Positions 1 through 9,602 of a DNA stretch of 9,602 nt are shown piece by piece (the first letter of the stretch is position 1; each line of letters begins with the position of its first letter). The DNA comes from a virus (Duplodnaviria > Heunggongvirae > Uroviricota > Caudoviricetes). The position numbers and the translations under genes are program-made. The stretch lies in the IMG/VR virus record IMGVR_UViG_2695420708_000010, one strand, 5' to 3'. The notes beneath the pieces are model-generated. The model saw only the letters and a program-made list of their open reading frames with translations, was not told where the DNA came from and made no database searches.

Positions 1-167
1 AAGAACAAATGGTAGTGTCCGCTATTGCCAGTACACCTCAGGGTATAAGGGGTTATGGCCACCGGACTACCAAACGGCTGCCAGCCCTCTTTCAGTTTAT
101 GTGTCAGCTTTTCCGCAAGATCTGACGGCGGCGCCGCCCTGACAACATCATAGTGTTTAAATGCCAT
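1..167 (-). CDS. Partial hypothetical ORF running off the left window edge (5' end inside, 3' end outside); begins MAFKHYDVVRAAPPSDLAEKLTHKLKEGWQPFGSPVAITPYTLRCTGNSGHYHLF
   Basis: Own minus-strand translation: ATG at 167..165 with GGTGGA about 9 nt upstream; frame stays open for 55 codons to position 3. Absent from the supplied ORF track because it has no in-window stop. Competes with the plus-strand ORF 9..125. Confidence 0.3.
   Translation of the reverse strand, partial: MAFKHYDVVRAAPPSDLAEKLTHKLKEGWQPFGSPVAITPYTLRCTGNSGHYHLF
3..40. repeat. Left arm of terminal inverted repeat (38 bp, perfect reverse complement of 9565..9602)
   Basis: Reverse complement of 9565..9602 equals 3..40 base for base; match ends at 41 versus 9564; the right arm reaches the window edge, so true length is unknown. 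Confidence 0.9.
9..125 (+). pseudogene. 38-aa ORF whose first 10 codons (MVVSAIASTP) match the start of the 9366..9596 gene at the opposite window end, then diverge; probable gene-start remnant
   Basis: ATG at 9..11, stop TGA at 123..125; the first 30 coding nt lie inside the terminal inverted repeat. Confidence 0.25.
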
Positions 168-427: not shown

Positions 428-763
428 ATGAAGTGGATTGTGATTGATACAGTTATCCAGCCATCATGCGGAATATCTTTTTCAGTCATATGGAGTAAAA
501 TAAAATTAATAATCTGGTATCAATCGGATGCTTTCTTACCTCCTGAAAGTATATTTACACTGACTCACACAGGCATCATGCTCAATAACAAAGTGCTACC
601 TGTAACCATTTACAACGTAGTACCATTCAATAAAACATTCTGGAATTCAATCAAAAATAGCCAGGAATGCCCTACAAATACAGATAACGTATTGAATGAA
701 TGCTTTAATAACCGTTGCACTCTGCAAATATGTCCTTATGGACTAAAACAACAAAGTCCATAA
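428..763 (+). CDS. Hypothetical 111-aa protein, AT-rich, four Cys in the C-terminal 30 residues; no family recognised
   Basis: ORF track; ATG with AAGGAA RBS about 8 nt upstream and a candidate promoter; opposite orientation to all neighbouring genes; identical second copy at 3672..4007. Confidence 0.45.
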
Positions 764-797
764 GGAGTTTACTCACATCTGACAAAATCAATATAAA

Positions 798-819
798 CAG
801 CCCCTCCGGAGAGGGGCTG
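798..819. terminator. Perfect 9-bp stem, 4-nt loop hairpin (CAGCCCCTC-CGGA-GAGGGGCTG); intrinsic terminator for minus-strand transcription, possible 3' end for ORF 428..763
   Basis: On the minus strand the hairpin is followed by a U-rich tract (TTTATATTGATTTTG); on the plus strand there is no T tract after it. Confidence 0.5.
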
Positions 820-1012
820 GAGAGTGGCGCTATGTGCCATTGCATGGTGCCGGGTGCCTCCCGGTGAATTCAGTACCAGCACCTGAATCCGCGATTATCC
901 CATATACCTACTCGCTGATTGCCCCTCCGCACAGGGGGATTCACCATGCCAGTTTCTTTTAACAAACTCCCCGCAAAACAGACAACTGTCAACCGTCTGA
1001 ATTGTGAGACAT

Positions 1013-1040
1013 TTAAAAAAAAGGCCCGCAAAAGCGAGCC
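1013..1040 (-). terminator. Rho-independent terminator immediately downstream of the Arg-UCU tRNA
   Basis: Minus-strand RNA GGCUCGC-UUUU-GCGGGCC (7-bp stem with one G-U pair) followed by eight U. Confidence 0.7.
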
Positions 1041-1144: not shown

Positions 1145-1221
1145 TGGACCGCCATCGGGGACTTGAACCCCGCGCAGCCAGCTTCGAAGGCTGGCGCTCT
1201 TTCCTGATGAGCTAATGGCGG
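1145..1221 (-). tRNA. argN: tRNA-Arg, anticodon UCG (reads CGA/CGG), 77 nt with encoded CCA
   Basis: Hand-folded: acceptor CCGCCAT/ATGGCGG, D stem GCTC/GAGC, anticodon stem CCAGC/GCTGG with loop CTTCGAA, T stem CGGGG/CCCCG with loop TTCAAGT. Unusual 5' C. Symbol from memory; not verified. Confidence 0.8.
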
Positions 1222-1344: not shown

Positions 1345-2403
1345 TCATCCGTTCTGGCTGACTAAATCCTGTACTTCCCGAACCGTCTGCTCAAAACGTT
1401 CAGTCTCCAGCTCAACGCCAATTGCACGACGCCCGAGCGCCAGTGCCGCTTTCACTGTCGAACCCAACCCCATGAAAAAATCTGCAATCAGGTCACCCGG
1501 ACGACTGCTAGCGCTGATTATCTGCTGCAGCATTTCTGCCGGTTTTTCGCACGGATGTTTCCCGGGATAGAACTGCACCGGTTTATGCGTCCACACATCG
1601 GTATACGGCACCTGCACCGTCACGCCAAAATACCGCCGCAGATGTTTATATTCACTCAGCAGCTCCGCATACTGCCGGTTCAGTGAGGTATACGTATCCA
1701 CCAGCTGGTGGTGGAGCTTTTCCAGTTCACCACGCCGATGCTTCTCTTCTGCCACCCGGGCAAACAGCGCCTGTAATTTCAGATAATCGCTTTCATTCGG
1801 CAACTGCCACTGACCGGCACTGAACCAGTGCGACACCATGTTTTTCTTTCCTGTGGCATCTGCAATCTGTTTTGCCGTTATCCCCAGGGCAGCTCGCGCA
1901 TCACGAAAGTAAGAAATCAGCGGGGCCATCACATGCTGTTTCAGTGCACTGCCCTTCGCCGCATACCCGGCATCTTTCGGACGATACGGCCCCTGATAAT
2001 GTTCCGCGAACAGAATGCGCTCTGTGGCGGGGAAATACGCCCGCAGGCTTTCCTTGTTGCATCCGTTCCAGCGTCCGGACGGCTTCGCCCAGATAATATG
2101 GTTCAGCACACTGAAGCGTTCACGCATCATGATTTCGATATCAGATGCCAGGCGATGACCACAGAACAGGTAAAGACTTCCGGCAGGTTTCAGCACCCGC
2201 CAGAACTGCGCCAGACACTGGTCCAGCCACTTCAGGTAATCATCGTCGCCCTTCCACTGGTTATCCCAGCCCTCAGGCTTCACTTTAAAGTACGGCGGGT
2301 CCGTGACTATCAGGTCAACAGAATTTTCGGGTAACGACCGGATAAATTCCAGGCAGTCGGCGTTGATTAACTCACAACTGGATATTTTTACAGTATTAAG
2401 CAT
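1345..2403 (-). CDS. DNA methyltransferase, beta-class N6-adenine or N4-cytosine (N6_N4_Mtase family), 352 aa
   Basis: ORF track. Motif IV DPPY (VDLIVTDPPYF) precedes the AdoMet motif I (DFFMGLGST), the order that defines beta-class amino-MTases; C-terminal HPCEKP...ASSRPGD block resembles YhdJ-type enzymes. ATG start, weak SD. Confidence 0.9.
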   Translation of the reverse strand: MLNTVKISSCELINADCLEFIRSLPENSVDLIVTDPPYFKVKPEGWDNQWKGDDDYLKWLDQCLAQFWRVLKPAGSLYLFCGHRLASDIEIMMRERFSVLNHIIWAKPSGRWNGCNKESLRAYFPATERILFAEHYQGPYRPKDAGYAAKGSALKQHVMAPLISYFRDARAALGITAKQIADATGKKNMVSHWFSAGQWQLPNESDYLKLQALFARVAEEKHRRGELEKLHHQLVDTYTSLNRQYAELLSEYKHLRRYFGVTVQVPYTDVWTHKPVQFYPGKHPCEKPAEMLQQIISASSRPGDLIADFFMGLGSTVKAALALGRRAIGVELETERFEQTVREVQDLVSQNG

Positions 2404-2537: not shown

Positions 2538-2566
2538 ACAAATAAAAAAGCCTTCACTGCGGAAGG
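2538..2566 (-). terminator. Rho-independent terminator overlapping the stop codon of ORF 2554..2751
   Basis: Minus-strand RNA GCCUUC-CGCAGU-GAAGGC followed by UUUUUUAUUUG. Confidence 0.65.
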
Positions 2567-2751
2567 CGTCTGTAACAACCGAACTGATAGTCTGCCAGAC
2601 CCGCCATAACCAGCTGGGTCAGTATTAACTGGCAGCGTTCGCGTGAAAGGTAAGTATTCTGCGCTATCTCCCCGACTGTCGCCGGTTCGGTAACGCTTAA
2701 TTCATTAAACACCACTCTGGCGGTTTCTGTCATATCCTGCTGTTTTAGCAT
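2554..2751 (-). CDS. Hypothetical 65-aa protein with a helix-turn-helix-like segment (TVGEIAQNTYLSRERCQLILTQL); possible small DNA-binding regulator
   Basis: ORF track; ATG at 2751..2749 with AAGGAAAAG RBS; ends in a terminator; lies just upstream of the methyltransferase. Confidence 0.5.
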   Translation of the reverse strand: MLKQQDMTETARVVFNELSVTEPATVGEIAQNTYLSRERCQLILTQLVMAGLADYQFGCYRRLPQ

Positions 2752-2975: not shown

Positions 2976-3394
2976 TTACCTAGTTACCTTTTTTAACTGC
3001 CGCTCAGCCCATGCTTCTTCAATATCAAACCGGGTCACCAGCGCATCATAAAATTTCTTAACTGTTTTTTCCCATGACGCGCGTGTTATCTGGTTTGTCA
3101 CCTCGCATATAGCATTAAATGCCTCCGTTGATGGTAGTCTTTCATAGCCACGACCACCACAACGCTGGCAGTCTCTGATAACAGGCATACCACGTTTTAC
3201 CGACTCTTCACGATGAATGGCGACACCACGCCCACGGCAATCCTTACAGGCGGTGGAAACCTCACCCTTTCCGCCACACTCCGGACAGGCAACTTTTACC
3301 ACCTCCCTGACTTTTTTCCATTCTTCCCAGTAAGACGGATACACACCTTTCGTACACTTTGCCCATACCGGCGGCTTACCATCCGGATACTGGA
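2976..3394 (-). pseudogene. 3' fragment of a Q-like antiterminator gene (C-terminal ~139 codons with the CxxCxGxG zinc-finger repeats), fused at 3394/3396 to the AT-rich module
   Basis: 2870..3394 matches 5209..5733; the intact gene's N-terminal ~134 codons are missing. The 191-aa track ORF 2976..3551 takes its first 52 codons from AT-rich module DNA with a GTG start and no SD. Confidence 0.8.
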
Positions 3395-3604
3395 AAGTGT
3401 TTAAATGCCATGGTTCTTTCCACCATCTGAAAAATAATTCTTTAAAATACCTGACATGTAATACAGAAAAAACACAAAACCATACCTTAAATAAAAACCT
3501 GATTATCAAGCAGATATGCATGGATAAACTACAAGACGAGATATAAACCACCCTGCATTTAAATAAACAATAAACAACATCAGAAAAATAATTCTGCTCT
3601 ATGG

Positions 3605-3631
3605 TTTACATTCAAAAATATCATTTATACT
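3605..3631 (+). promoter_or_regulatory. Candidate sigma70 promoter for ORF 3672..4007 (copy of 361..387)
   Basis: Identical sequence to copy A. Confidence 0.4.
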
Positions 3632-3671
3632 TTTCAGAACATCACCAGCAAGGCATAAACAAGGAAACTAA

Positions 3672-4007
3672 ATGAAGTGGATTGTGATTGATACAGTTAT
3701 CCAGCCATCATGCGGAATATCTTTTTCAGTCATATGGAGTAAAATAAAATTAATAATCTGGTATCAATCGGATGCTTTCTTACCTCCTGAAAGTATATTT
3801 ACACTGACTCACACAGGCATCATGCTCAATAACAAAGTGCTACCTGTAACCATTTACAACGTAGTACCATTCAATAAAACATTCTGGAATTCAATCAAAA
3901 ATAGCCAGGAATGCCCTACAAATACAGATAACGTATTGAATGAATGCTTTAATAACCGTTGCACTCTGCAAATATGTCCTTATGGACTAAAACAACAAAG
4001 TCCATAA
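3672..4007 (+). CDS. Hypothetical 111-aa protein, second copy identical to 428..763
   Basis: ORF track; identical translation; same RBS and promoter. Confidence 0.45.
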
Positions 4008-4041
4008 GGAGTTTACTCACATCTGACAAAATCAATATAAA

Positions 4042-4063
4042 CAGCCCCTCCGGAGAGGGGCTG
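4042..4063. terminator. 9-bp stem hairpin, copy of 798..819
   Basis: Identical sequence to copy A. Confidence 0.5.
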
Positions 4064-4287
4064 GAGAGTGGCGCTATGTGCCATTGCATGGTGCCGGGTG
4101 CCTCCCGGTGAATTCAGTACCAGCACCTGAATCCGCGATTATCCCATATACCTACTCGCTGATTGCCCCTCCGCACAGGGGGATTCACCATGCCAGTTTC
4201 TTTTAACAAACTCCCCGCAAACCAGACAACAGTCAACCGCCTGAATTGTGAAGTATTTAAAAATTTCTCCCGCTAACTGATACCCGG

Positions 4288-4374
4288 CTAACAGTCTGGC
4301 GTTTTCTTTTTCAGCAACGGGAAAGCAACAACCACCACACCCGCCACCAGCACACCGTCAGCCAGCACTGACAT
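4288..4374 (-). CDS. Candidate 28-aa hydrophobic peptide (MSVLADGVLVAGVVVVAFPLLKKKTPDC), single predicted TM segment then a basic tail
   Basis: Own translation; ATG at 4374..4372, stop TAG at 4290..4288; only a weak GGA SD; below the ORF-track size cutoff. Confidence 0.25.
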   Translation of the reverse strand: MSVLADGVLVAGVVVVAFPLLKKKTPDC

Positions 4375-4454
4375 TATCCGGCTGCTGCAATGCCATTCAC
4401 AAAAACAGTAAGCAATCACTTTTTACCGTAACAGGTGATAATCCAGATATGTAT

Positions 4455-4781
4455 CTACCCCAGATGAGTAATCCGAAGTTCATCCATACCACAGGTCCTG
4501 GCTATTCTGTTGTACTCCTGAACAAGAGCAAATAATTCTGAATTAGCAACCATGAACTCATCGCAAACCCTCTGTATAGCATCACTATTCAGAATAATAA
4601 CGTCTCTTCCCGAAAGACGATCAGGAGTACAGAACAAAACTGTCAAACGGCTGAAGGCCTTTGCTCGTGCTGCATTGACTATATCAATACGCTGCCTAAG
4701 GATGAAACACCCCGACGCCTCATCAATATTCACTCTACCCACACCATATGAATGATAAATATTTAATGCTGAAAAAACCAT
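4455..4781 (-). CDS. Hypothetical ~108-aa protein (117 aa from the TTG at 4808); no family recognised
   Basis: ORF track 4455..4808 begins at TTG; first ATG is at 4781..4779; no convincing SD for either start; sits directly downstream of the tRNA cluster on the late strand. Confidence 0.3.
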   Translation of the reverse strand: MVFSALNIYHSYGVGRVNIDEASGCFILRQRIDIVNAARAKAFSRLTVLFCTPDRLSGRDVIILNSDAIQRVCDEFMVANSELFALVQEYNRIARTCGMDELRITHLG

Positions 4782-4918
4782 TAGACCGTATAACAAACAC
4801 TCAATCAATACTTAACAGAACTTTTATTTTTGACAAACATAAAATATTTTCAACAATATCCTGAGCCAGGTATATTTCAGTATAAGGCTCTGCCGGAAGG
4901 AATCTGGAAGAATGAATA

Positions 4919-4995
4919 TGGCGCGCTGTACTGGATTCGAACCAGTGACCGATTGCTTAGAAGGCAATTGCTCTGTCCGGCTGAGCTAACAACGC
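4919..4995 (-). tRNA. argO: tRNA-Arg, anticodon UCU, 77 nt; differs from the 1055..1131 copy by one acceptor-stem change giving a U-G pair
   Basis: Same hand-folded cloverleaf as 1055..1131; plus strand reads GCGCTGT where the other copy reads GCGTTGT. Confidence 0.85.
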
Positions 4996-5008
4996 TGAAT
5001 ACCGATAA

Positions 5009-5088
5009 TGGACCGCCATCGGGGACCCGCCCCCGCACCAACAACCCTGTTATCATGTCGTCTGCTCTTCCTGATAAGCTAATGGCGG
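5009..5088 (-). pseudogene. Degenerate tRNA-Arg-like element: acceptor stem and D arm conserved, anticodon arm, variable loop and T loop replaced
   Basis: The 5' ~25 nt and 3' ~17 nt align with the intact Arg-UCG tRNA at 1145..1221; the middle (AGACGACATGATAACAGGGTTGTTGGTGCGGGGGCGGG) gives no anticodon stem-loop by eye and the T loop lacks TTC. Confidence 0.55.
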
Positions 5089-5095
5089 TTTGTGA

Positions 5096-5171
5096 TGGTG
5101 GCCCTTGCTGGATTTGAACCAGCGACCTGGCGATTATGAGTCGCTCGCTCTCACCACTGAGCTAAAGGGCC
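5096..5171 (-). tRNA. ileZ: tRNA-Ile2-like, anticodon CAU, 76 nt; identical to 1229..1304
   Basis: Identical sequence to the other copy. Confidence 0.85.
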
Positions 5172-5208
5172 GGGAGCAGAATAATAACGGTCCGTAATTA
5201 ATTCCGCA

Positions 5209-5235
5209 ATAAAAAACCCGCTCGGCGGCGGGTTG
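5209..5235 (-). terminator. tR'-like rho-independent terminator between the Q-like gene and the tRNA cluster
   Basis: Minus-strand RNA A-CCCGC-CGCCGA-GCGGG followed by UUUUUU; about 80 nt downstream of the Q stop. Confidence 0.7.
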
Positions 5236-5281
5236 TAGAAACTCTTCTAACGTCAGGCATAAAACGCCCATAGTTATGACG

Positions 5282-5309
5282 AATTTACCACAGATTCCGG
5301 AAAAATCAA
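5282..5309 (-). promoter_or_regulatory. PR'-like late promoter (-35 TTGATT, 16-bp spacer, extended -10 TGgTAAATT); would give a ~65-nt transcript ending at tR'
   Basis: Hexamers at 5309..5304 and 5287..5282 on the minus strand, immediately after the Q stop codon (5315..5317). Confidence 0.4.
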
Positions 5310-5314
5310 CCTTG

Positions 5315-6136
5315 TTACCTAGTTACCTTTTTTAACTGCCGCTCAGCCCATGCTTCTTCAATATCAAACCGGGTCACCAGCGCATCATAAAATTTCTTAA
5401 CTGTTTTTTCCCATGACGCGCGTGTTATCTGGTTTGTCACCTCGCATATAGCATTAAATGCCTCCGTTGATGGTAGTCTTTCATAGCCACGACCACCACA
5501 ACGCTGGCAGTCTCTGATAACAGGCATACCACGTTTTACCGACTCTTCACGATGAATGGCGACACCACGCCCACGGCAATCCTTACAGGCGGTGGAAACC
5601 TCACCCTTTCCGCCACACTCCGGACAGGCAACTTTTACCACCTCCCTGACTTTTTTCCATTCTTCCCAGTAAGACGGATACACACCTTTCGTACACTTTG
5701 CCCATACCGGCGGCTTACCATCCGGATACTGGATCTTGTTTGTAAAAACCTCGCTTTCAATAAATTTTTTTCCGTGACAGCAGGGGCACTGTTTTTTGCT
5801 CGCCGCGCTACGGGCATAATCTTCAAACGCATACGAAGCCATAATACGCATCACTGCCGGTTTTATTTCTGCCGGGAGTTTTCTTAACGCCGCCACGCGA
5901 TCACACCGACTGAGTGCATATTCTGTCAGCAATTCTGTTGCCCGCTCTCTGTCATTCATACTAATGCCCATTTTCCCAAGGAACGCAGAAACCCCCATCT
6001 CAGCCCGATTCTGTGTCATGCCCTGCGCGGCCATCACATCAGTGATACTCAGCGCATCTTTCGACGTTGAGGCCGATGCATCAGTCAGGCCGGGGGATTT
6101 TGGGGAGTAGTATTTCGGTAAATCTTCCAGTTTCAT
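5315..6136 (-). CDS. Antitermination protein Q-like, 273 aa, with DnaJ-type CxxCxGxG zinc-finger repeats
   Basis: ORF track; position between rusA and PR'/tR'/tRNAs is the canonical lambdoid Q position; ATG overlaps the rusA stop (ATGA); motifs CPCCHGKK, CPECGGKG, CKDCRGRG, CQRCGGRG. Family assignment rests on synteny and motifs, not a search. Confidence 0.75.
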   Translation of the reverse strand: MKLEDLPKYYSPKSPGLTDASASTSKDALSITDVMAAQGMTQNRAEMGVSAFLGKMGISMNDRERATELLTEYALSRCDRVAALRKLPAEIKPAVMRIMASYAFEDYARSAASKKQCPCCHGKKFIESEVFTNKIQYPDGKPPVWAKCTKGVYPSYWEEWKKVREVVKVACPECGGKGEVSTACKDCRGRGVAIHREESVKRGMPVIRDCQRCGGRGYERLPSTEAFNAICEVTNQITRASWEKTVKKFYDALVTRFDIEEAWAERQLKKVTR

Positions 6137-6513
6137 TTTTTGACCTGCCCTTCAAGCATTATGGGATAAATCTTCACCCCCAGACGTCCACCAGATACTG
6201 GCTGAGCACGAACGATATTGATTTCATCAAACTGCTCATCGTCCATTAGCAACCCCGCATGCGTCAGCGCATCCAGCGGCGCTTTCAGAATATTGTCCAG
6301 GTCACGGCGGCGCTTATCCGGTGGTTCTGCAATAATTTTTATTGCCAACCTTCCGGACAGGCTTAATTTCAGCCGCTGCTGGCGAACAATAAGCGCCACT
6401 GCCCGGCGATAACGCTCCCCGGCTTTTGATACAAAATATGTGCTGCCACGACGACGCCAGTAAGTGTTCACCGTCGGCGGGTAAGGTAAAACAAATTCTA
6501 TGCGCTCGGTCAT
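6133..6513 (-). CDS. rusA: Holliday-junction resolvase RusA, 126 aa
   Basis: ORF track; shows the RusA-family DxxRRRDLDN motif as I recall it; usual nin-region position just upstream of Q. Confidence 0.88.
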   Translation of the reverse strand: MTERIEFVLPYPPTVNTYWRRRGSTYFVSKAGERYRRAVALIVRQQRLKLSLSGRLAIKIIAEPPDKRRRDLDNILKAPLDALTHAGLLMDDEQFDEINIVRAQPVSGGRLGVKIYPIMLEGQVKK

Positions 6514-7572
6514 TTATGCTTTCCACTTCAGAACACCCGAATTTCTCGCGTGCATTAAAAAACGAATCAGCAACAACAGCTGACTGCCGTGTTTCTCTTC
6601 AAAATCTTTTACTCCGGCATGTAGTTCGTTACGGCATTTACGGCATAACGGAATAACAAACAAATCATCAGCCTTTGTTCCCATCCCTCCCAGTCCATGA
6701 CCAATGATGTGATGCGGATCATCTGCCTGATTGCCACACGTCATGCATTTCTGCGTTTTTACCCAGCGCGTGTATACAGGCATCTCTTCCCGTTGTGATT
6801 TCTGGCGCTGGAGATACTGAGCCGGTGACTCCGGATCAACGGCAATGCTGACCACCGTCTTTTCCTGTGGTGGGTTCTGTTGCTGGTGGACGTGAGGCAG
6901 TAACGCAATATTTTTTGTGCGCTGCTTCAGTATGCTGGTGGCTGTCTGCTCTCCCGGTATGATGTCGCTTTCACTGTACACAGAGCGAATTTTTTCCGCA
7001 CGCAACCCCAGCGAACGACGTAATACCGCTTCCGGTAGCGCGTCCGCCACCTGATTGCGGACCGCCCACCAGGATAATTCAGCCAGAGATAATTCACGCT
7101 CCTGCGTACCGCTTATTGCGTGACCGATGACGTCAATCATCCATGCTGACAGGTTTTGATGAGCAAGTTGCTCGAGTGATTCGGATGTCTGGTCACGCAG
7201 CTGGTTGTCGCAGTGCCAGCACAACACCATTGCGCCGGTACCATAACGGTGAATGACGGTTTCGCTGTGATGATAATCGCCGTGTGGCCACTGGCAGGAT
7301 TTAATATGGCGCAACAGCCAGTCAGACAATGCACCAGCACCACCAGCAGCACGAATCACCCGTGCGTTACTGAAAAACGGCAGCAATGTTTTGTCTTCCA
7401 CCAGCGGCTGGCGAGCGGCAGGAACGACCCCGGACGGCAGATTACGCATGCTTTTTGGTTCCGGCTCCACCAGTATTCTGCCGTTATGGAATGCTGACAT
7501 TGATTCACGGCCTGGCTTAACGATAACCAGACCGAGTTCCGGTACCAGAACAGGTCGAAGTAATACCCGCAC
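6514..7572 (-). CDS. DUF968-like prophage protein (YdfU-like), 352 aa, with a Cys/His-rich C-terminus (CMTCG...DPHH...CRKC)
   Basis: ORF track; GTG start at 7572 with GGAGG 5 nt upstream; family assigned from memory of Qin-prophage ydfU neighbourhood and motifs. Confidence 0.7.
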   Translation of the reverse strand: MRVLLRPVLVPELGLVIVKPGRESMSAFHNGRILVEPEPKSMRNLPSGVVPAARQPLVEDKTLLPFFSNARVIRAAGGAGALSDWLLRHIKSCQWPHGDYHHSETVIHRYGTGAMVLCWHCDNQLRDQTSESLEQLAHQNLSAWMIDVIGHAISGTQERELSLAELSWWAVRNQVADALPEAVLRRSLGLRAEKIRSVYSESDIIPGEQTATSILKQRTKNIALLPHVHQQQNPPQEKTVVSIAVDPESPAQYLQRQKSQREEMPVYTRWVKTQKCMTCGNQADDPHHIIGHGLGGMGTKADDLFVIPLCRKCRNELHAGVKDFEEKHGSQLLLLIRFLMHARNSGVLKWKA

Positions 7573-8399: not shown

Positions 8400-8555
8400 T
8401 TACTCCTCAGGTTCGTAAGCTGTGAAGACAGCGACCTCCGTCTGGCCGGTTCGAATTCGTACCTCGCAGAGGTCTTTCCTCGTTACCAGTGCCGTCACTA
8501 TGACGGTTAAACAGATGACGATCAGGGCGATTAACATCGCCTTTTGCTGCTTCAT
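8400..8555 (-). CDS. hokD: Hok/Gef-family type I toxin, 51 aa (HokD/RelF-like)
   Basis: MKQQKAMLIALIVICLTVIVTALVTRKDLCEVRIRTGQTEVAVFTAYEPEE is a classic Hok sequence and matches HokD as I recall it; ATG at 8555..8553 with AGGAG 9 nt upstream. The track ORF 8400..8612 is an in-frame 19-codon upstream extension. Confidence 0.88.
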   Translation of the reverse strand: MKQQKAMLIALIVICLTVIVTALVTRKDLCEVRIRTGQTEVAVFTAYEPEE

Positions 8556-8766
8556 AGCCTGCTTCTCCTTGCCTTTCGGCACGTAAGAGGCTAACCTAGA
8601 TTTGCCGTTCATAGATTGAGCCTCAGATTAATGTTAAGCGTCTTGCCGGACGCGTAATGTTAACTGGGGCTTTTCTCTATCTGCCTTTTGGTGTTCATGC
8701 CTGAGACAGATAGCCTCAAGCACCCGCTGCAATTCTACTTAACTCTCCTTTTCCCGCAAACCGTTT

Positions 8767-9365: not shown

Positions 9366-9596
9366 TTAACCCGCAGTGCTTTCAACTGATGAGGGGAACA
9401 AAATCTTTTCATCAAACCCTGCATTCATATCATGAACAGCAACACACCAATCCATCGACGAACGATTATCAAGAGCCTCCATGATTTCATCCATGCGGCG
9501 TAGGTCATACAGGTAAATGCTTTTATCGCCAATGGTGTAAAAGCCAATTTTTTTCGGTGATGGATGAGGTGTACTGGCAATAGCGGACACTACCAT
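9366..9596 (-). CDS. Hypothetical 76-aa protein; start codon and first 10 codons lie in the right terminal inverted repeat
   Basis: ORF track; ATG at 9596..9594; upstream region is outside the window. A plus-strand ATG at 9564 opens an outward frame (MRCTGNSGHYHLF) in the same region. Confidence 0.45.
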   Translation of the reverse strand: MVVSAIASTPHPSPKKIGFYTIGDKSIYLYDLRRMDEIMEALDNRSSMDWCVAVHDMNAGFDEKILFPSSVESTAG

Positions 9597-9602
9597 TTGT
9601 TC
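9565..9602. repeat. Right arm of terminal inverted repeat (reverse complement of 3..40)
   Basis: See left arm. Confidence 0.9.

Follow-up and report, generated by a model that had tools for sequence, protein, structure and literature searches.

The DNA of IMG/VR virus record IMGVR_UViG_2695420708_000010 (9,602 nucleotides, nt; the whole stretch is called the window below) carries on its minus strand the late regulatory region of a Qin-like lambdoid prophage in the form of a rearranged remnant, and this report concerns the interval 4260–4918 of that region, in which two small open reading frames (ORFs) follow the antiterminator gene Q and its associated tRNA genes. From high to low coordinates, the order of features on the minus strand is hok/sok, a DUF968 gene, rusA, Q, a PR′-like promoter, the terminator tR′, two tRNA genes and the two ORFs. 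A partial tandem duplication is present in the window (positions 152–1019 equal 3396–4236), and we refer to its two versions of the late region as module 1 (Q, tRNAs, orf92, 'tciB, the small RNA (sRNA) gene STnc100 and iraM) and module 2 (a truncated Q, a 65-amino-acid (aa) gene, a methylase gene, three tRNAs, a terminator, STnc100 and iraM). The stretch between Q and the lysis genes is the site of lambdoid conversion genes such as stx, so unfamiliar cargo at this location is worth checking. An earlier note on this DNA described the two ORFs (4455..4781 and 4288..4374, both on the minus strand, positions with which the ORF listing agrees) as uncharacterised cargo whose coding status was uncertain. 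We show here that the larger one contains a genuine gene, orf92, and that the smaller one is, by homology, the tail of a truncated tciB gene, 'tciB.

The larger ORF contains a gene under purifying selection

The larger ORF encodes 108 aa when read from its ATG at 4781 and 117 aa when read from a TTG at 4808. Residues 10–117 of the 117-aa reading match positions 1–108 of the 108 in the profile of PHROG 2873 (E = 3.8e-70), and no significant match was found in Pfam, NCBIfam or PADLOC. The claim that this ORF has no recognisable family is therefore correct for Pfam and NCBIfam models but not for PHROGs, and the protein has already been deposited in public databases as a hypothetical protein (e.g., UniProt A0A136WL65_ECOLX and GenBank AKK54112.1) in both a 108-aa and a 92-aa form; the exact 108-aa protein is found on more than 1,000 contigs and the 92-aa protein on 210.

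Two diverged alleles were recovered by a distant-mode BLAST search of complete E. coli genomes, one in the O43 strain RM10042 (L004), where the ORF is unannotated, and one in ETEC4079 (L005), where it is annotated as the 92-aa protein WP_001017777.1. At 57–63% amino-acid identity these alleles still have exactly 92 codons; the window, RM10042 and ETEC4079 alleles are each exactly 279 nt long when measured from a GTG codon and can be aligned with no indels. That GTG is the codon that precedes NID(E/D), and it is replaced by ATG in some database members. Pairwise Nei–Gojobori comparison of the three alleles gave ratios of non-synonymous to synonymous substitution rates (dN/dS) of 0.26–0.27 at a dS of about 0.9–1.1, and the substitutions are in excess at third codon positions (43, versus 24 and 23 at the other two). 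The other reading frames have ratios near 1, except for the antisense frame that shares its wobble positions with orf92 (apparent dN/dS 0.22–0.38; see below).

The earlier note had named conservation of the reading frame across homologous prophages as a test of coding, and such conservation is what we found: in addition to the absence of indels relative to the two diverged alleles, orf92 is intact in all 79 of the close loci examined (32 haplotypes), with no stop codon and no indel in any of them. Among these 79 loci variable sites are sparser in orf92 than elsewhere in the interval (4.3 per 100 nt, versus 12.4 in the upstream segment and 10.6 in the DUF3927 ORF discussed below), and the variants within it are 6 synonymous and 7 non-synonymous changes. 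The larger ORF is a genuine gene, whose conservation under purifying selection is far beyond chance, and this settles the doubt about its coding status in the gene's favour.

Where the protein begins is less directly read. RM10042 and ETEC4079 have in-frame stop codons 6 and 11 codons upstream of the GTG, respectively, so the 16 additional N-terminal residues of the 108-aa form are specific to the window lineage; the corresponding codons (4734..4781, minus strand) are open in the window's clade only and may be a lineage-specific extension. We conclude from the alignments that the gene is probably 4455..4733 (minus strand), with a conserved core of 92 codons, a GTG start and a possible extension to 4781, so the length of about 108 aa given previously is that of an ORF that is open from its ATG and not that of the conserved protein. 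Likewise, of the 108 positions in the PHROG 2873 profile, conservation across the clades covers the last 92. Translation signals are weak, as had been noted: calculated Shine–Dalgarno (SD) pairing with the anti-SD sequence is −0.9 to −4.5 kcal/mol at the candidate starts, while Q has −8.2 and the mean over the whole window is −1.7, and the GTG at 4733 has the best, though still modest, value among the candidates. There are practical consequences for annotation, since the RefSeq records of those near-identical complete E. coli genomes that were listed leave out a gene under purifying selection, and since its likely start is the GTG at 4733 as opposed to the ATG that gene callers pick.

The smaller ORF is by homology the tail of tciB

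The 28-aa peptide (4288..4374, from an ATG at 4374) had been presented as an uncharacterised unit of its own, and this does not hold. A longer ORF of 43 aa, which begins at a GTG at 4419 (4288..4419, minus strand) and which the Prokaryotic Genome Annotation Pipeline (PGAP) records as WP_000562553.1, contains it as its C-terminal part. Residues 2–43 of this ORF match positions 7–53 of the Pfam profile DUF3927 (PF13064; 95.6 bits versus a cut-off of 25, E = 1.7e-27), and it also matches PHROG 1470, which is labelled "TciB-like". Intact TciB proteins of phage P1, the lambdoid phage JLK-2012 and Citrobacter are 50–54 aa long and have two hydrophobic helices. A check of the peptide for transmembrane segments, which the earlier note had suggested, found a single hydrophobic segment in the window's version (Kyte–Doolittle windows 12–20) where intact TciB has two. 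The last 29 residues of the window's ORF (SSRIMSVLADGVLVAGVVVVAFPLLKKK) correspond to residues 23–51 of full-length TciB, its second helix and tail, and are 97% identical to JLK-2012 TciB. Where intact TciB has its first membrane helix, the window has 14 residues of unrelated sequence, with MIAYCFCEWHC in place of the N-terminal helix. The peptide is thus the tail of a DUF3927/TciB protein from which the first membrane helix has been lost, and the DUF3927 "protein" annotated in near-identical genomes corresponds to a truncated tciB. The 43-aa ORF has a stop at codon 8 in 2 of the 79 close loci.

Nucleotide homology with JLK-2012 tciB starts at position 4387 and runs downstream into the sRNA region, and a tblastn search of the window with tciA, a gene that JLK-2012, P1 and Citrobacter all have, found no match. 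The location of 'tciB is like that of tciB in JLK-2012 (Q, tRNAs, tciA, tciB) and P1 (dmt methylase, tRNAs, tciA, tciB, tciC, tRNA-Ile2) in that it also lies 3′ of phage tRNA genes. In the simplest history suggested by these alignments, a recombination or deletion event with its breakpoint at 4387/4388 joined the orf92 segment (4388–4918) to what remained, at the cost of tciA and the 5′ portion of tciB; such a deletion in a Citrobacter-like order (orf92-family gene, terminator, tciA, tciB) would give exactly the arrangement seen in the window. What is left of tciB may be, at best, a one-helix membrane peptide of 28–43 aa. The functional label tci is itself a homology-based one; tciABC was found to be non-essential for P1 in a CRISPR interference screen (PMC10695390), and in the literature on DUF3927, tciB and mEp460 we found no functional data.

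The interval is the positional equivalent of the stx slot

The annotated order in phage 933W is Q, pR′, qut, terminators, ileZ, argN, argO, a terminator, stxA2, stxB2, a nanS-p esterase gene, S and R. In the window, Q, the late promoter, the terminator and the tRNAs come in this order too, and the window's tRNA block aligns almost base for base with that of 933W. On this combination of gene order and alignment, the proposal that the interval 4260–4918 is the positional equivalent of the stx slot, 3′ of Q, tR′ and the tRNAs, is confirmed as a matter of synteny. The window's cargo begins about 140 nt after argO and differs from that of 933W in being unrelated to Stx; in addition, a decayed sequence stands in place of the terminator that separates argO from the cargo, the argN copy is a degenerate one, and the downstream esterase gene is represented by a DUF1737 fragment that is interrupted by iraM.

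The features that precede the slot in module 1 are all on the minus strand and are as follows. The region is headed by the Q gene (5315..6136, 273 aa; Pfam PF03589 Antiterm, E = 1.6e-53), which PGAP annotates as "antitermination protein" in near-identical loci. Next is a promoter-like sequence that was read by eye (5282..5309; TTGATT, 16 nt, TGgTAAATT, with its −10 element at 5287–5282); it scores 8/12, which is under the threshold of our promoter scan, and its position directly after Q, which is that of pR′ in 933W, makes it the probable PR′. We take it to resemble the PR′ of lambda. The tR′ intrinsic terminator was found by the terminator scan at 5205..5234 (hairpin 5234–5215, AACCCGCCGCCGAGCGGGTT, followed by a run of T's), and a second tR′ copy lies at about 2869–2900, after the truncated Q and inside repeat D2. 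A tRNA gene with anticodon CAT (5096..5171; ARAGORN, Rfam) is tRNA-Ile according to PGAP and, when aligned, is identical to 933W ileZ (tRNA-Ile2). It is followed by a spacer (4996..5095) that alignment with 933W argN and with the window's intact tRNA-Arg(TCG) gene at 1145..1221 shows to be a degenerate argN-like pseudo-tRNA, with a diverged middle part and no ARAGORN call; the argN-type gene between ileZ and argO is thus degenerate in module 1 and intact in module 2 and 933W. The last of the series is an argO-like tRNA-Arg(TCT) gene at 4919..4995 (ARAGORN, 933W alignment).

No terminator separates the tRNA-Arg gene from the larger ORF, as had been stated: the terminator scan found none, and the segment 4860–4920 folds no better than its shuffled versions (z = −0.25). 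The stretch just after argO (4880..4918, minus strand) aligns with the terminator CCAGGCTCGCTTTTGCGGGCCTTTTTT present in 933W and in module 2, but its stem and T-run are gone. The second tRNA cluster, on the other hand, is followed by a strong terminator (stem 1040–1023 plus a T-run; z = −4.61 for the region 1005–1056), which bears out the terminator reported there at 1013..1040. One weak terminator-like site within orf92 (4619–4601) has only 3 GC pairs and was taken to be due to chance. Therefore orf92 has the layout of a Q-dependent late gene: Q, PR′ and tR′ precede it on its own strand, and beyond tR′ no other terminator intervenes.

The unit extends beyond the interval, a feature that the earlier note had missed. 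No terminator is found directly after orf92, and the first one 3′ of it in the window belongs to the STnc100 sRNA gene (4033..4222, minus strand; Rfam RF02076, 132.4 bits versus a gathering score of 47), which lies outside 4260–4918 and closes the unit. The match spans the full length of the model and ends in its own intrinsic terminator at 4063–4042. STnc100 is a known prophage sRNA that is related to PasD, and its usual location is in lambdoid late regions near esterase genes (bioRxiv 10.64898/2026.05.13.724894). The window differs from the typical case in having two copies, which is a consequence of the duplication; the second is at 789..978 (minus strand, 133.6 bits), and both end in the hairpin CAGCCCCTCTCCGGAGGGGCTG and a T-run. 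Within 4260–4918 itself the Rfam scan (E ≤ 1) found no RNA family.

The orf92 family and its genomic contexts

A word-indexed search of 5.8 billion proteins recovered 23 relatives, most of them near-identical and one clade at 54–60% identity. When 1.84 billion representative proteins were searched exhaustively with a profile, only 19 matched, and the full-length ones among them are 91–95 aa long. By their source names, all of the members belong to E. coli/Shigella, to the Citrobacter freundii complex or to Salmonella Kottbus, where they are carried by prophages and plasmids. The Citrobacter and Salmonella homologues are 33–43% identical to Orf92 and have kept its length and motifs, with a good SD sequence in Citrobacter, and the distant members (P0027–P0033 of our set) also match PHROG 2873. 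Within E. coli the window allele is common, being present at ≥99% identity in 1,184 of 5,426 complete genomes (about 22%) from environmental, animal and human sources. The common E. coli arrangement is an intact one in which Q is followed by the 65-aa gene, the methylase gene, tRNAs, orf92, 'tciB, iraM and holin.

In Salmonella Kottbus the homologue is flanked by Q and the holin genes, that of ETEC4079 lies after a late-region methylase gene and before a holin gene, and that of RM10042 is upstream of a nanS-p-type esterase gene. In Citrobacter braakii the homologue is followed by tciA (TerB-like), tciB (DUF3927), holin and endolysin genes; positions 4926–7200 of the ATCC 51113 locus (L008) contain, in order, a terminator, orf95, a terminator, tciA, tciB, a Phage_holin_8 gene, a second small membrane ORF and an M15 peptidase endolysin gene, a compact late module in which the orf92 family adjoins an intact tciAB pair. 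We considered an obligate orf92–tci module and ruled it out, since tciB adjoins the gene only in the window clade and Citrobacter and not in Salmonella, ETEC4079 or the plasmid copies. A more distant E. coli clade is found on plasmid-like contigs in the vicinity of a K88-like fimbrial operon, and one further member adjoins a type IV pilus cluster. In the fimbrial case (positions 4001–4276 of contigs L089–L091) a 91-aa member with 34% identity has the PapB-regulated K88-like operon on one side and a cation-efflux/integrase/Rep3 region on the other, and so is not part of a phage late operon.

In both Citrobacter and Salmonella, an intrinsic terminator precedes the start codon of the homologue by about 55 nt, with no promoter match between the two. 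Downstream of the gene there is a clear terminator in Citrobacter and only a weak match in Salmonella; the ETEC4079 homologue, like that of Citrobacter, has a terminator just downstream. This terminator-flanked, promoter-less layout suggests that these copies may be expressed by antiterminated read-through.

Predicted structure of Orf92

An AlphaFold2 model built from a 12-sequence alignment has a mean predicted local distance difference test score (pLDDT) of 91.2 and a predicted template-modelling score (pTM) of 0.76, and an earlier model from 5 sequences agreed with it. The predicted protein is soluble and consists of a helix (residues 3–34), a short β-hairpin (39–41 and 44–46) and a second helix (50–81), which together form an antiparallel helical hairpin; in this model a TPDR motif that is invariant in the family is at the tip of the β-hairpin. 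Family members are mostly acidic (pI about 5–6), and none has a hydrophobic segment. Foldseek comparison of the model with the PDB and with viral models gave nothing at E ≤ 0.001 and returned generic helical hairpins only, so the description of the larger ORF as uncharacterised stands after both structure prediction and profile searches. The best profile match among PDB sequences, a UPF0335/GapR-like protein, has an E value of 0.61 and was dismissed as noise. We also considered whether Orf92 might be the TciC protein of P1 and ruled this out, as TciC is 35 aa long and a tblastn search of 50,697 phage records with orf92 (E ≤ 1) found mEp460_ev081 only. The predicted fold fits a small protein-binding module without pinpointing a function, and an enzymatic activity, a location in the membrane or a role as a secreted toxin all seem unlikely to us.

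State of the prophage remnant

The window is not an intact late region. In addition to the duplication, a second, 5′-truncated copy of Q (2976..3395) is fused to the segment that contains the DUF1737 fragment and iraM, and a search of the 5,426 complete E. coli genomes found the junction (3395/3396) in none of them. The ends of the window (3–40 and 9565–9602) form a perfect inverted repeat of 38 nt whose sequence is the terminus of the insertion sequence IS600 (IS3 family), so the window is the DNA between two inverted IS600 copies. The ORFs at 9..125 (plus strand) and 9366..9596 (minus strand) have their first 10 codons in common owing to this repeat. Shigella sonnei is among the sources from which the exact 108-aa protein has been named, and we suppose that the window derives from a Shigella-type remnant rich in insertion sequences.

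Expression and possible role of orf92

We think it probable, though by no means certain, that the interval is the moron slot of a Qin-like lambdoid late region, that it holds orf92, the gene of a putative binding modulator, together with the remnant 'tciB, and that it is closed by STnc100. According to this interpretation, RNA polymerase modified by Q would start at PR′ and read through tR′, the tRNAs, orf92 and 'tciB, as the geometry suggests, and the STnc100 sRNA and its terminator would end the unit. Judging from its shape, charge and position, Orf92 may bind another protein and, as a small modulator, influence some function of the host or the phage at about the time when late genes are expressed and the cell lyses. 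The claim in the earlier note that both ORFs would be transcribed from PR′ on induction stands insofar as the geometry fits Q-dependent read-through; induction-dependent expression of this copy is made uncertain by its state.

Several observations weigh against this interpretation. The window is an IS600-bracketed, rearranged remnant with a truncated second Q, so that Q-driven expression of this particular copy is uncertain. The SD sequence is weak at every candidate start, and RefSeq/PGAP leaves the ORF unannotated in near-identical complete genomes, among the rows listed. Only one of the 50,697 sequenced phage records carries orf92, the laboratory-derived mEp460_ev081. Finally, the plasmid, fimbrial and pilus contexts of some family members argue that the role of orf92 is not tied to the late operon.

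A more specific proposal, which we regard as possible but doubtful, is that Orf92 belongs to an overlooked family of small cytoplasmic effectors, confined to the Enterobacteriaceae, that are made only when antitermination, by Q or otherwise, carries transcription through the flanking terminators, and that its binding to a protein of the host or the phage adjusts what happens just before lysis (e.g., lysis timing, superinfection exclusion or counter-defence). If true, this would be a widespread and unstudied prophage function, as about one fifth of E. coli genomes carry the gene and most lack a RefSeq annotation for it. In any case, orf92 is a small and well-defined target for studies of prophage late-region function. 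The sequences themselves are common and already deposited, so their novelty is low, and they are not a new toxin or system.

In the alternative that survives best, orf92 would serve lysogenic conversion and would not be a Q-dependent late gene: it would be transcribed while the prophage is uninduced, either from an AT-rich promoter of its own upstream of the gene or by transcription that runs on from a tRNA promoter. We regard this as possible but doubtful. Since the post-argO terminator has decayed in module 1, transcription of the tRNAs would enter orf92, and read-through from a tRNA promoter could also occur in the uninduced state. There is a promoter-like match 5′ of orf92 (TTGAAA, 16 nt, AAAAAT at 4853–4826), the 933W annotation includes a putative tRNA promoter, pT, module 2 has TTGAAG, 17 nt, TATTAT at 1342–1314, and the gene is frequent in defective prophages and in plasmid-like contigs that lack Q. 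However, the promoter scan found 6 matches as compared to 4.1 ± 1.9 in shuffled sequence, which is chance level, the −35 element of pT is degraded in module 1 (TTGCGG), and the location of the Citrobacter and Salmonella homologues right behind a strong terminator with no promoter match points to dependence on antitermination. Lysogenic and late expression are compatible, and both could be true of orf92.

We consider it quite unlikely that the 108-aa ORF is untranslated, i.e., that it is decaying intergenic DNA left by recombination whose conservation reflects the recent spread of one sequence. The missing PGAP calls and weak start signals (above) speak for this idea, the more than 1,100 copies that are ≥99% identical are by themselves silent on selection, and the neighbouring 'tciB is itself a remnant. 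Nonetheless, the idea is largely refuted by the selection and homologue evidence: alleles at 57–63% identity retain 92 codons with a dN/dS of about 0.26, homologues at 33–43% identity retain length and motifs, AlphaFold predicts the fold with confidence, and orf92 is the least variable segment in the close clade and is never disrupted.

That the cargo is a virulence or toxin determinant, analogous to Stx and released at prophage induction, is very improbable. Only its position, in the slot occupied by stxAB in 933W, speaks for it. Orf92 shows no similarity to toxin, defence or structurally solved proteins (Pfam, NCBIfam, PADLOC and PDB), it is predicted to be an acidic, simple helical hairpin with no signal peptide or N-terminal hydrophobic segment, about 22% of the complete E. 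coli genomes carry the gene, their sources being human, animal and environmental, and 'tciB is a truncated membrane peptide. There is similarly very little chance that the real gene is instead the antisense ORF at 4552..4755 (plus strand, 67 aa), whose frame shares third codon positions with orf92, runs without a stop through most of the region in the window and through all of it in ETEC4079, and has an equally low apparent dN/dS; we rejected it because that ratio is the expected shadow of the wobble-sharing sense frame, and because the ORF has a mid-frame stop in RM10042, no Pfam, PHROGs or NCBIfam match and the worst SD value of the candidate starts (+0.4 kcal/mol).

Neighbouring genes

An iraM-like gene (3672..4007, plus strand; NCBIfam NF007393, E = 4.7e-48; "anti-adapter protein IraM" according to PGAP) is convergent with the orf92 unit. 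An identical copy is at 428..763 (plus strand); these genes for an RssB anti-adaptor are antisense within the late region and lie in AT-rich DNA of about 30–35% GC. In module 2 an N6/N4 DNA methyltransferase gene (1345..2403, minus strand) lies between the truncated Q and the three-tRNA cluster, a common arrangement in ST131-type prophages, and it is preceded by the 65-aa ORF (2554..2751, minus strand), which is winged-helix-like, belongs to PHROG 331 and has weak TrmB/MarR Pfam matches. Far upstream of the slot, an ORF for a hokD-type type I toxin (8400..8612) lies within 8400..8725 (minus strand) together with a sok antisense RNA (8550..8725; Rfam RF01794, 112 bits), as in the Qin prophage of E. 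coli K-12.

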